Origin: a candidate division TM6 bacterium GW2011_GWF2_32_72 | GTDB taxonomy: Bacteria; Babelota; Babeliae; Babelales; CAIQNR01 | Length of the DNA stretch: 64,000 nt | Assembly: GCA_945882015.1 (NCBI GenBank) | Contig: CAMCVM010000005.1 | Coordinates: 7,376 to 71,375 of the forward strand | Reading direction: 5' to 3' | In this document: piece by piece, positions 35,813 to 41,800 of the stretch | Numbering within the stretch: the stretch's first letter is position 1 | Layout: each line of letters starts with the position of its first letter | Notes under the pieces: generated by a model | The model's database searches: none | What the model was told of the DNA's origin: nothing | Seen by the model: the letters and a program-made list of their open reading frames with translations, nothing else | Position numbers and translations under genes: made by a program

Positions 35813-38800
35813 TTATTGCACAGCTGATTGTGGCATTACATAAAGCGGTAGATTAATTTCGGCATCACTAATCATTTTAGGAGCTGTAAGTCTTAATGGT
35901 TCGTCTTGAGCAACAACAAGTCCACCTAATTGCCCTTGTATTGCTTGCATATCAGCACCACTTATAACCGCTCCGGTTGGAACTCCTGTTGCATCAAACA
36001 CAAACGAACCTTCTTTGTTAACCGCTGGATAACTTATGTATTGACCTGCTTCAGCGCCGATAAATGCATCTTTTGCTGTTACTTTATACACAACAGTTTT
36101 TGTTACACTGTCATAGTACAACTGATTGATATGTCCGCTCATGGTAGTAAACAGATCAGCAACTCGTTTTAAACCTGCTGCTTTTTGTTCTTGTAATGCG
36201 GCAACTTGAGTATTGACAAGACTATTAGAAGATTTTAAAGAACTTTGCGATTGAGCAGTGCTTAATGAAACTGATTTACCAGCAGGAATTACTGCGACAG
36301 GTTGACCCAAAAGCTCTGTTGGTCGTGGCTTACCTTGTTGATAGGCAAGGTTTTGTTGTGCTGTATTATTTGCAGTAGCGGCAGTCATGGAATTAGTTAA
36401 ACTGTCTTGTATTATTTTTATTTTTTTATCATAAAAATCTGTTACCTGAGCAGTAATGGTTGTTTTATAATCTGCAAACGAGCCTGTACTTCCTGGACGG
36501 CCGATTACTTGATCATTCAATTGTGTAAGCCCATTAACATTAAGGAATGGAACCAAGGTTAATACACCTTGTGAAGAAGTAACGGGCATCTTTTTAAGAG
36601 GCATATAATATTGCTTAACTAAATCTGGTTGCTCTGTTTGCGGGAACTGAAATTGATAAACATAACTAGTATTTTTATAAATAAAACCAAAATACGCAAC
36701 ATCATGCGGAAGCTGTGAACCAACCGCTTGAGTTGGCCACTGAGTACATGCTCCTTGCATATCTTGTCCATTACAATATAAAAGCGGCGAAATTGCTTGA
36801 ACAAAGCTCATCGAAACTAGGCTATTGTTGTACCAATTATGCTTAATCGGATCAAGAGCAAAGTAACGATACATCCATATAAATCCAGTTACATCAGCTT
36901 TATTTTCAGAGTTGGCACTATTGTCTTTAAACAGGAGTGCATTATTTAATAATAAAGTACTCATTTGGCTCAACTGTGTAGCCCCTTGGGTAACATCTCG
37001 TTGGCCAAGAAATTTTAATACGGTTGGAATAATCATTGCAGATCCATCAGAATTAACTGCTTTTTTGAATACCCCTAAAGATACTGGATTTTCAGAATCT
37101 TCCACATCATACACATTCCACTGGTCAGTACTTTCTGAAAAATATGCATCAATGTATAACGGAGCTGGGTCACTTGCTTGTGTGTATCCAATATTCATCA
37201 TTGCATATAATGTTTGCGATGCGATCAACCCACTTTGTTGAGCTTCTTGCAATGCTGTTGCCATATTACCAGCTGCCTGAATAGTAAGTGGTTTAGTTTC
37301 AACAGCAGCAAGATCAGGAGCCCATGACTTAATAACTACTTTTGGACTTTTTGCCTCAACTTTATAAACACCACCATCAGCTATTCCTCGTGGATTATCA
37401 GCTGTTGCTTTTGCAGGATTCAAGTAAGTAAAATTATAAATTTTTGCTGCGTCGGCAGTAGTATATTGATACATAACACCTTGATCAATTGGTCTATACT
37501 GAGCAAATCGATTGAGTGCAGAATCTGTTGTAGAAAAATGATACGGCATGAACAACGTCATTGCTTCATCTTGCCCCCATACTACTAACGGAGCTTGTGT
37601 AATAAATGTTCCATCTGTTTTTTGTGGCAAATAAGCAACTGTTTCAATAGCCATTGGTTGTCCATCAATTGAATACTCAAGGCCACTGACTAAACTTACA
37701 TAATAAGGAGCACCCTTTTTAGGATTAACTTGTAATAAAATATCTGATGGAGCATGAGGAGTAAGTAAATCTTGAATTTTTACAGAAGTTCCAATACCAG
37801 TTTGTAATAATGCTGAAGCGTTTGCAATGTTATAATAAAGGTATGAAGATGTTCCATCAGCAGAGGTTAAAGCTGGACCTGAACCAATTAACTTCATCAC
37901 AACCCCATCTTTACCACCGGCTAAATTTTTATCTGCATCAGCCATTGCAAGAGCTTTTCTTTCAACTGCAAACGTAATTGATTGTTTCCCCGTAGTTTGA
38001 TCAATAGTAACACCATGAGCAGTTGCCATAGTTATTGCAGCTGAACCGGATAACACATTAACCGCATTAATTGTTCCAGTAAGAGACAAGGTAGAACCAA
38101 CTGCGGCTTGATCTAGAGAACTTTCTTGATCAATAGCAACTGTTGTTTGCATTTGATCAGTTATTTCAAAATAAACACCTGTTGGAAATTGATTGATATA
38201 AATATCAGCTGCAGCTTGTGTTTGACCACTTGCTGTAACCGATGCAATATTAAATGCATAATACCCTACTGTTTTAAATCCTTGAGCAGAAGTTGTTGCA
38301 GCAGCAGTAGTTGGAGTTTGCCTTACATAATAATTACCATTACTGTCTTGATACATATTACCACTGTCAGAACCTGTCCCTGCAACTCTTGTTAACGTTG
38401 TTGGAAATACAAACGAAGTTTTTTTGGTATTAATCAGTTGCACTACTAATTGTTCATACGACATATCAGCAATACCTAAATCTTGAGCTTGTTGTTGCTG
38501 AATTTTTTGTACTAAATCTTTAACGTATGCCTGATTTGCCTGACTAATAGTAGACTTTAATGAGCTTTCTATACTATTTAAACTGTTACCTTCAAGAATA
38601 GTCATAATAGTTGCAGCAAATTGATCAAGTGATAACGTTCCACTTTTTGTTGCAACCAATGTGTCATACTCAATAATATGATCCTGTCCATTAACTTGCC
38701 ACAACAAATCTTCGGCATGCGATCTTGTATATTTAATACCAGAAACTAAACTTACTACTGCCGTTGTTGTTAAGTCTATTGGACCACCCCATTGTAAAGC

Positions 38801-41800
38801 ACCATCAACAGTATCTTTAACTGCTACCAAATAGTCTTTAGCAACTGCTGTAACTGGATCATCATTTTCAAAAACTTGATAGATATAATTGCCACTATTA
38901 ACTTGATCTCGAGTTATAAATAACGTAAACGGTCCGAATAAATTTGGCCCATAGAAATTATTCAACCTACCTGATTGCAATACATTCAATTGCGCCTGAA
39001 GTCCTGCATTTAAAGTCATTCCTGTTGTTTTTAAAAATGCTTGTGTAACATCAGTAGGATTTATTTCGTACAATTCTTGGTATCCGTTAACAACTGGTGC
39101 AACAATTTCTTTTTTAGAACCGTCTGCCATAGTCATTGAAAGTCTGATTAACACTACTCCTGAACCAATATTAATTAATGCATTGAGTGTGCTATCTTCT
39201 GAGAAATCCGCACCTATTTGATCAAACGATTTTATTGAAAATGAAGTACCAGCTTGCACAAGCGCAATCAATGGATCTTGCCCAGCAGCTGCTTGGTTTC
39301 TTAACCCAAATTGTGCTCCAATTCCTACGTATTGGCCTAACTTTACTGATGAACCGTCAGTAAGTTTATTACTTGAATCAACAACAATTGGACCACTGAC
39401 TGAATTATAGCGCGCTGCTACCCATAGACCTGAAAGTGCATGAGTAAGTCCAGGACTGCTTACAGAATATAATGATACCACTGATGGAACGTCTCCAGAT
39501 TTTTTGCCCACAACTTGTCCGACTAATGACCAATTTGGTTCATTGTTAGCCGTAAAGTTATGTGGTCCTTGAGCAAGAATCATACTCCATTTATTATTTT
39601 CGTCTGCCATTAAAGCATTACGCCATGCTGCATGCACTTGCACAAATGTCCATGTTTTTTGATCTGCATTATCTTTTGGAATAGTAACAGTATGAACATT
39701 GTTCAAAACAGTTTTTAAATTTTGACTATGAGTATCTAAACTTTGAGCTTCTTGTACTGTTTTTTCTAAAGCAGCATTAACTGACGATGGCCACGGCATC
39801 CCTGTCATCTCTTGTGGTAATATTCTATATAATGGAACAGGTAATGTTTGTGGATTAGCACATTGTGTAACTTGTGGATATCCTTGGCTTAAATATTGTA
39901 CTAAATCTGTTTTAGAACTGGTTGGGTTAATAATACCTGAAGAACAATAATCATATTTAAGCAACATGAAATAGAATGGCCACATTTTAATTTCAGTTTC
40001 AGGAGTTCGTTTTTGATTTAATGGATTTAAATCTGTTTCCATAAAGGCAGTTGCTAATGGTGCATTTTGTCCACCATCTTGTACTACATAACCATTAATA
40101 CAGATTAAACCTGGAGTAGAACCGGTACATTGTTTTGGTTGAGCTGGAGCATCCATGCTTAAGACATTAGTACGGAATGTATTTGAAAATAATGTATACG
40201 TTCCATCATAAATTTGGCCAGTAATTAAACTGATTAAAGCTGTAACTTGTGTTGAAACTCGTCCCATTGCAGTACCACTTTGCACCGCAGCCTGCATTCC
40301 TAGTGGGACAAACATGTAATTACCTGTTGCCTGGTTAACTGTTACCGGAATTACATAATCAGGCAGCTTCATAGCTCCAACTGCACCTGACAAAGCATTG
40401 TCGATCCGATAGACATAGACACCACCACCTTTTTCAGGATCAAGTAAAGATTTTTTAGTATCAATTGACATGTCATCATCTTGTGAAGACAACTGCGCAC
40501 CTTGACCTGCTTGTCCTAATAAATCAATAAGTTGAATTTTTTGTAACACATCAGAAGAAAGGTTTGATAATCTTTCTGATGCTGATTTTTCAAAAACTGC
40601 AAATACCCCGTCTCTTAAAAAGAATGGGCCATCTGCTATTTGTATATTCATAAATAATTTCATTGCTCCAAGTTGTGTTTGCAATTCAGTGCTCTTGTAT
40701 TGCGCCATCAATGTTTTTAAAACTGTTTGCGCAATAGTTGTGTCAACTGATCCCTGATCATTTTTTAATGATTGACCATGACAACCAAGAGGATATGTTG
40801 CACCATTTAACAAACTCACCACATAGGCGATGTTAGGATTTACAGCCCACTGCACAACAGGTTGGTCAATTGGAGCATCTTGATTACTATTTACTTTTGC
40901 AGCATGCAAAGGAACAATTTGAAAATCTTGATCAACACATACTAAATAGTCGTGAACAAATGGATGTAAGCCCTTTTCTACTTTTGATCTAACGCATTCA
41001 GCTGCTTGCGTTGTATCACTTTCATAGATATAAATTCCTTGTCCAACTAATCTTGTATTTTTCGCAATACCCTTACTAATCAGTTGATCAGCAGGTACCC
41101 CAAGAGATTTCAAAACAGTCTGATCTGTAATATCTTTCCCTTGATGTAATGCATTAATAATTTTAGAACGCACATCAGGATTATTAATAAAAAACTCTTC
41201 GTAACTTGTAAGTAATCCTGTTACTGCTCCAATACCTTGCATTTCACGAAGTGAAAAGTTTCCAAAATTTGCCACTGACGTATCTTGTGCAAATAATGCT
41301 AAAGAACTTTGTAATAATGGCGAAATAGCTGTTGTTGCATCAGGAGCGGCGTATAAGTTTTTTAAATCAGCTTTAAACAAATCTGCTACTCCTAAATTTC
41401 CTTTTGCAGAAGTATTTACCTGCTTGTTACCTTTACCGCCAGCAGCAAGCATTCCTACTACTGCTTCTTTTTTATCAAGTCCTGCAACAAATCGGTACTC
41501 ATCAGAAATAAAATCTTGTACCGATTTATCTGATGATTTTGCAGTAATAGTAACCGGCTTAAATAATGGAGTCATGCTTTCTACAACTCCTGATGAATCA
41601 ATCACAGCTCCTGTGGTTAATTCCACCATTTGTGTAATTTTACCAGAACCTAAATAATCTTGCGCGAAATCACCATATTTACCAACTGATACAAAATAGC
41701 GACGTTGTTTTGCGCTATATTCACCAGGAATATCAGAATAAATAAAAATACTACTTAATGGATCTTCTTCTGAAACCAACCCATCAACAATCTTCATTTT

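Follow-up and report, generated by a model that had tools for sequence, protein, structure and literature searches.

Six diverged copies of a clade-restricted, unnamed module with a predicted beta fold in a giant, putatively exported protein of Candidatus Babeliales (Dependentiae)

Are short peptide motifs that return in the same order along a giant protein the remains of one duplicated domain and, if so, what would such a domain do in a protein of this size? The question is raised by a stretch of 64,000 nucleotides (nt), here called the window, from contig CAMCVM010000005.1 of a candidate division TM6 bacterium (assembly GCA_945882015.1), in which a single open reading frame (ORF) of 2504 amino acids (aa), P0001, lies on the minus strand at 35813-43327. 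The Dependentiae (TM6), obligate parasites of protists with a wide distribution, export proteins that are mostly ORFans, and we know of no description of how they attach to or enter their hosts. The first-pass annotation of the window, made from its letters, had listed five triplets of motifs and read them as ancient copies of an unnamed beta-rich domain that no longer resemble each other at the DNA level. All 15 motifs are indeed present, exactly or a few bases away from where they had been placed, and the one ORF holds them all. Altogether, our analysis shows that the triplets belong to six diverged copies (five clear and one degenerate) of one ancestral domain of ~70 to 130 aa, and we hold with high confidence that these repeats are real, homologous, and a new domain (Table 1).

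Plain self-BLASTP of P0001 gave no off-diagonal match, and profiles were therefore required to compare the copies, which share 16-27% identity as protein and, as had been announced, no significant similarity as DNA (best 14 nt, E=0.18). The homologue set comprised seven sequences at 26-86% identity (alignment A1) and ten further orthologues at ~19-23% from the genomes of relatives. Alignment of orthologue sub-alignments by hhalign paired m2 with m4 at P=1.1e-6, m3 with m4 at P=2.7e-6, and m2 with m3 at P=2e-4, and the module alignments were collinear across all three motifs. When module profiles were run against the whole 2504-column family profile, the best alternative matches were always other modules, with m2, m3, m5, and m1 outranking all other regions in the case of the m4 profile. 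The profile matches of m1 and m5 were weaker (P 0.002-0.05) yet collinear and top-ranked. Moreover, a hidden Markov model (HMM) of the module, built from 40 instances in eight close homologues (P0001 included), detected three to six copies per protein at 20-39 bits in ten distant orthologues outside the training set, compared with a best score of 4.8 bits in 20x shuffled copies of all proteins. A regular expression for the three ordered motifs, fitted post hoc, matched P0001 five times and none of 5000 shuffles; motif 3 alone matched five times in P0001 against at most once in shuffles. An HMM iterated on 153 database matches confirmed the five strong copies; it had swollen to ~220 positions through carried-over insert columns, and its longer envelopes were disregarded. 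The recurrence noticed in the first-pass annotation is, hence, that of a homologous repeat.

The count of five, by contrast, did not stand. Additional copies were sought by comparing the module profile A3 with every inter-module region, and the family-profile region aa 1050-1468 aligned with it over 75 columns (probability 93%, P=3.3e-7), revealing a sixth, degenerate copy, mX, that had been missed. In this genome, motifs 2 and 3 of mX are parted by an insert of ~77 aa; the same position is canonical in distant orthologues (e.g., NYVYV / EYLVMAD / YAISLSNGNVY), and the strand pattern of mX in the structural model is that of the other copies. Self-comparison of the 18-sequence profile pairs aa 1262-1597 with 505-889 and aa 1279-1536 with 772-1043, the longer self-matches thereby joining the mX region to m1, m2, and m3. 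Beyond mX, no further inter-module region of P0001 scored against A3. A possible remnant of a seventh copy, with P=0.026 across 23 columns of aa 1895-2504 and weak matches to motif 3 only in orthologues, is not claimed.

Table 1. Positions of the module copies, of the protein that carries them, and of neighbouring and related genes (window coordinates unless stated otherwise)
Feature	Protein positions	Position	Strand	Description	Basis
Module m1	aa 516-585	41573..41782	-	SIFIYS / RYFVSV / VELTTGAVID	HMM 49 bits; AlphaFold2 strands at three motifs
Module m2	aa 758-854	40766..41056	-	GIYIYE / DYLVCV / VVSLLNGATY	HMM 72 bits; hhalign; AlphaFold2
Module m3	aa 958-1049	40181..40456	-	GVYVYR / DYVIPV / LISLITGQIY	HMM 71 bits; hhalign; AlphaFold2
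Module mX (sixth, degenerate)	~aa 1266-1398	39134..39532	-	VVSLYSV / GLWVAARY / ALINIGSGVVL	hhalign; AlphaFold2 strand pattern
Module m4	aa 1469-1539	38711..38923	-	GNYIYQ / DYLVAV / VVSLVSGIKY; most typical copy	HMM 55 bits; single-module model
Module m5	aa 1817-1894	37646..37879	-	SYLYYN / DILLQV / YVSLVSGLEY	HMM 43 bits; profile scan
Giant ORF P0001		35813..43327	-	Signal peptide, coiled-coil stalk, and ~2000-aa body with helical linkers alternating with beta modules
N-terminal signal peptide (predicted)	~aa 1-30	43238..43327	-		Hydropathy; hydrophobic leader in all orthologues
Coiled-coil stalk (predicted)	~aa 31-460	41948..43237	-		PDB profile matches, heptad-type internal self-matches, low conservation
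Thioredoxin reductase-thioredoxin fusion (TrxR-Trx)		43432..44940	-	Upstream neighbour of giant gene	Pfam; conserved position
Leucyl aminopeptidase PepA		33567..35090	-	Downstream neighbour of giant gene	Pfam; conserved position
C2H2 zinc-finger protein	194 aa	35195-35779	-	Two classical fingers; between giant gene and PepA
FtsH-like AAA protein	1048 aa	45128-48274	+	Upstream on other strand	Position kept near giant gene across the order
Class B protein P0154	1681 aa	Another contig of same genome (G000 C2), L026:6003-11048	+	Two adjacent modules near C-terminus

Structure prediction agrees with this picture of a repeated beta-rich domain. An AlphaFold2 model of aa 500-1699, computed from the 18-sequence alignment, had a mean predicted local distance difference test (pLDDT) score of 72 and a predicted template modelling (pTM) score of 0.59, the module regions being its confident parts and helical segments separating them. 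In m1, m2, m3, mX, and m4, each of motifs 1, 2, and 3 lies on a beta-strand in this model, equivalence from copy to copy being judged by strand order. Modelled alone, the 81-aa m4 with 54 aligned instances (A3) reached a pLDDT of 85.2 and a pTM of 0.70 with one short helix and six strands, motif 1 (consensus G-x-Y-I-Y) as strand 1, motif 2 (D-Y-L-V-x-V) as the long strand 2, and motif 3 (V-S-L-x-(T/S)-G-x-x-Y) as strand 4, a T/S-G turn, and strand 5. Since each motif falls on a strand and the single module yields a confident model, the motifs can be read as the core strands and fold signature of a small autonomous beta-domain, and in silico the module is predicted to fold on its own. The loops between strands range from 8 to 77 residues, and m2 carries a helical insert between motifs 1 and 2.

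The motifs are also the conservation peaks of the whole of P0001. Among 18 sequences of ~19-86% identity, 11 of the 21 invariant columns of aa 500-1699 fall in the motifs, and divergent orthologues share a mean pairwise identity of 0.34-0.84 in the motifs (0.43-0.84 if mX is set aside), compared with 0.27 in the body and 0.13 in the stalk. Outside the motifs, the loops of m2 and m3 retain an identity of 0.34-0.45 between orthologues, exceeding the body mean. From copy to copy, on the other hand, only fold-defining residues have been retained since duplication. Positional orthologues of every copy are found in proteins with an overall identity of 19-26%, which come from several families of the order and sit in the same gene neighbourhood; the duplications thus predate the radiation of the order's module-bearing families. 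The copies are as ancient as the first-pass annotation had supposed, having arisen by internal duplication before the module-bearing families of Candidatus Babeliales (Dependentiae) diverged. The order TrxR-Trx / giant gene / PepA is kept in most of the twelve relatives' loci examined (PepA in 11 and TrxR-Trx in 10, some of these loci ending early at contig ends), even where the giant protein is only ~19% identical. Such conservation of gene order makes the giant gene a vertically inherited core gene that evolves fast outside its modules. Orthologues of P0001 are free of internal stops in many genomes. Our results show that the module copies are ancient and under purifying selection.

How far does the module reach beyond this protein? 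Against 1.84 billion representative proteins, the module profile gave 223 matches at E<=1e-3 and 118 at E<=1e-10, each match being a cluster at 50% identity; nearly all of them are 1200-2900 aa long with two to seven matched stretches each. This database search, which the first-pass annotation had put forward as a check, recovered two architectures. In class A, the present family, with 87 of the best 153 matches and a median length of 2080 aa, at least three modules are dispersed along the protein; in class B, with 61 of these 153 and a median of 1557 aa, two adjacent modules stand ~125 aa from the C-terminus. P0001 has all the marks of class A, namely, a signal peptide, a coiled-coil stalk, at least three dispersed modules, and a site between TrxR-Trx and PepA. 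Of 261 genomes of the phylum, 49 have the module; these belong without exception to one order, where they fall in eight families, and most of the module-bearing genomes listed encode ORFs of the two classes. The earlier view of a domain repeated inside a giant protein was right about the repetition, but the domain is also present outside P0001, in this second protein family.

The class B protein of the same genome, P0154, carries a signal peptide, ~300 aa of hydrophobic sequence rich in Ala and Gly with strongly hydrophobic windows near aa 782-810, and a Tyr/Gly-rich tail, and its second module matches m4 by plain BLASTP (31% identity, E=0.001). A second architecture with adjacent copies supports the autonomy of the domain. 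A Pfam scan of class B proteins, P0154 included, returned nothing. A PHROG match of P0154 to a tape-measure protein (E=4e-4) looks compositional, and this identity was set aside.

Searches for known relatives of the module were blank throughout, in agreement with the first reading of a domain without a known name. P0001 as a whole matched nothing below E=0.03 in Pfam, NCBIfam, and PHROGs, its weak matches lying in the coiled coil, and its ~2000-residue body had no match in these three collections or among PDB sequences. In 54 module instances scanned singly against Pfam at E<=5, no family was matched by more than one instance, and the module found nothing significant among PDB sequence profiles. 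The module profile itself, run against the PDB, gave a partial match to the Bin-toxin-like 8bad, covering the motif-3 hairpin over 34 positions (E=0.021 for the full sequence, domain i-E=0.47). By Foldseek against the PDB, neither the 1200-aa model (best E=1.3) nor the module (best E=1.8) had a fold match; oligonucleotide-binding (OB) folds of single-stranded DNA-binding (SSB) proteins returned for the 1200-aa model had E>2 and were taken as noise. A ricin-type beta-trefoil lectin was likewise rejected, there being no threefold QxW repeat, no PF00652 or PF14200, and no trefoil by Foldseek. The literature searched on Dependentiae makes no mention of such a protein. We conclude that the module represents a genuine domain family, unnamed, restricted to one clade, and without detectable relatives, although of a familiar kind (repeated small beta-domains in a giant exported protein of a symbiont). 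Judged against the PDB, its predicted fold is provisionally a new one.

The remainder of P0001 gives the modules their setting. The segment aa 3-28 is the sole strongly hydrophobic one by hydropathy, and every orthologue has an N-terminal hydrophobic leader followed by an (M/E)EGE motif; cleavage would probably occur before the conserved EF/EGE motif. The following ~430 residues form the weakly conserved stalk, and it is there, at positions ~100-430, that all PDB matches of the family profile are confined, only coiled-coil proteins being hit (SMC1A, TolA, and tropomyosin, E=0.002-0.4). Cysteine pairs at 1067/1076, 1128/1156, and 2185/2194 are kept in the family consensus, in the regions aa 1067-1156 and 2185-2194 (window ~39860-40129 and 36746-36775), which read CTxxxxGxxCxNGY, YDYCxSG...VTxCxNPQ, and LLYCxxQDxQGxCTxWP. 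These conserved pairs suggest putative disulfide-bonded subdomains outside the modules. A transmembrane helix at the conserved hydrophobic patch aa 465-490 was ruled out (hydropathy <1.5), as was, on inspection of the sequence, a lipoprotein signal, the TLV-C at Cys17 not matching a lipobox.

What, then, could the six modules do? We propose a model in which a six-copy domain is carried by an exported stalk-and-body scaffold that makes contact with the host, and, all evidence considered, we regard this overall explanation as the probable one, if by a modest measure. P0001 would be exported via Sec, as suggested by its signal peptide and by the conserved cysteine pairs with their suggested disulfides. 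The ~430-residue coiled-coil stalk would bear a body made of rigid beta modules with helical linkers between them. These modules would act as scaffolds whose copy-specific loops, at least in m2 and m3, may offer binding surfaces, and P0001 could thereby contact the protist host during attachment or entry, or else the cell envelope. The host-contact role follows the general proposal made for giant ORFs of reduced symbionts, e.g., those of Omnitrophota, for which a function in cell-cell adhesion has been put forward (PMC10066038). Taken by itself, the functional part of this model, with the module as scaffold and the protein in host contact, is tentative, and we would place it somewhat short of an even chance. 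Several observations weigh against it. No outer-membrane anchor, barrel, or secretion signal was identified in P0001, and the position of its vertically inherited gene among housekeeping and cell-envelope genes (PepA, FtsW, and MurD) fits an envelope scaffold equally well. The loops of m4, m5, and mX are conserved below the body average, so that the idea of loops as binding surfaces holds at best for m2 and m3. Moreover, the conserved polar Asp, Ser, Thr, and Tyr could form a binding site rather than just the fold, and the alignment behind the single-module model mixes paralogous copies.

The alternative that survives best is a lineage-specific scaffold of the envelope or of cell division, without host contact, in which P0001 would reside in the periplasm or envelope, either in soluble form or anchored, like TolA, through an N-terminal helix that is not cleaved, and the modules would be structural. 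A single-copy, vertical gene in synteny with PepA, FtsW, MurD, and the TrxR-Trx fusion is what such a protein might be expected to have, the stalk profile is weakly like the coiled coils of TolA and SMC, and the lack of any outer-membrane barrel or secretion motif seen in P0001 points the same way. On the other hand, the extended ~430-residue coiled coil would measure, by our estimate, ~60 nm, longer than a typical periplasm; the non-motif body changes rapidly (identity within one order is 19-35%), as surface or host-facing proteins more typically do; and the module also belongs to another exported protein, one region of which looks membrane-active. Altogether, we consider this alternative unlikely, while taking it seriously.

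A lectin-like module, in which the invariant Tyr, Asp, and Ser/Thr would bind a ligand such as a glycan and the six copies would provide multivalent binding to the host surface, is less likely again. Its attraction lies in the conserved Y, D, S, T, and G, a mixture of aromatic and polar residues as in many carbohydrate-binding sites, and in the weak and partial resemblance of the motif-3 hairpin to the lectin-like N-terminal part of the binary-toxin-A-like 8bad. Nevertheless, that match is insignificant and spans a mere 34 profile positions, the Pfam scans of the 54 instances returned no ricin-type or other carbohydrate-binding module family, and the positions of the conserved residues, on core strands and in a tight turn, are those expected of fold-determining residues. 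Equally improbable in our eyes, though more far-reaching, is an extension of the host-contact proposal in which the module would be a new fold defining a two-protein host-entry apparatus specific to Babeliales, the stalked six-module class A protein and the class B protein recognizing each other or a common host ligand via the module; if true, the module would serve for coupling or binding in an invasion machine not described so far. Finally, recurrence of the motifs by chance or convergence without common ancestry, Tyr/Val/Ile-rich amphipathic strands being common in beta-rich proteins, is very improbable and essentially excluded, for while the blank self-BLASTP, the 16-27% identity, and the individually weak m1 and m5 matches speak for it, they are outweighed by a motif order constant in all copies, P values of ~1e-6 to 3e-7 for m2, m3, m4, and mX, the invariable top rank of other modules among alternative matches, the transfer of the HMM to unseen orthologues, the empty shuffles, and a database search that yields only multi-copy giant proteins.

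Our study defines a clade-restricted family of 223 clusters in two architectures and one order, together with the A3 profile and a confident model, and gives a name, for purposes of annotation, to several hundred giant proteins now called "hypothetical". Within a core giant exported protein, the modules of this family are the best conserved parts. The 81-aa piece predicted to fold independently could be used for expression, structure determination, localisation, and binding probes. If the fold is new, it would be an addition to the catalogue of small beta folds.

Around the giant gene, the C2H2 zinc-finger gene between it and PepA is found in this genome only and not in the loci of relatives; loci L011 and L016/L002 have zinc-finger arrays at other positions. 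A link of the TrxR-Trx fusion or the FtsH-like AAA protein to the giant protein, e.g., in redox handling of its conserved cysteines, is a possibility. At the class B locus, L026, ORFs of 1210 and 781 aa (66-3698 and 3643-5988, both on the plus strand) lie directly upstream of the class B gene; they had no Pfam match, and by BLASTP they resembled neither one another nor the giant protein. The three large ORFans of L026 may form an operon. Further along, at L026:12330-16123 (plus strand), three successive genes for WD40 beta-propellers (393, 485, and 378 aa) follow a UvrC-like gene; such eukaryote-like repeat proteins are typical of Dependentiae. On one 632,655-bp contig of a near-identical strain, the giant and class B proteins are present only as fragments (415-640 aa and 67-853 aa, respectively), which suggests either frameshift errors of the assembly or real pseudogenisation. 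The genome studied here measures 0.82 Mb at 92% completeness. COX1 was absent from all 21 sampled genomes of the order, as would be expected if TM6 has no respiratory chain, which has been reported (PMC4776705). A Rickettsiales origin, to which "Proteobacteria" labels on some relatives (probably the submitters' own) might point, was rejected on this absence and on the label "Candidatus Babeliales bacterium" of a member of the P0001 cluster at >=90% identity.

Compared with known systems, the giant ORFs of Omnitrophota (PMC10066038) resemble P0001 as very large, poorly annotated exported proteins of small genomes, but there is no detectable homology, theirs are much larger and differ in domain content, and the comparison is a conceptual one. 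P0001 resembles TolA, SMC, and tropomyosin in that a long stretch of heptad repeats follows an N-terminal hydrophobic helix; this likeness is compositional and confined to the stalk, P0001 having no TolA domain III and the body and modules being unmatched. In the ricin-type beta-trefoil subdomain of 8bad, the hairpin N-x-x-S-G-K-x-L-D-x-x-G resembles motif 3 (x-S-L-x-T/S-G-x-x-Y/I-D-x-x-G), whereas the module, which has neither QxW nor a threefold repeat, is not long enough for a trefoil, and we treat the likeness as chance or convergence. Giant bacterial surface proteins and adhesins with repeated beta-domains (e.g., the Ig-like Big/BIg domains of RTX-type and other giant adhesins) differ from the P0001 family, which has no sequence match (Pfam, NCBIfam) or structural match to any of them, in that their repeats are arranged in tandem and they have a secretion domain, whereas the copies of P0001 are dispersed between helical linkers of 70-350 aa and its N-terminus is a long coiled coil. 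They are nevertheless alike in their overall plan, many diverged copies of a small all-beta unit inside an exported protein of very large size in a host-associated bacterium, and P0001 shares with these proteins the conservation of fold-defining residues only.

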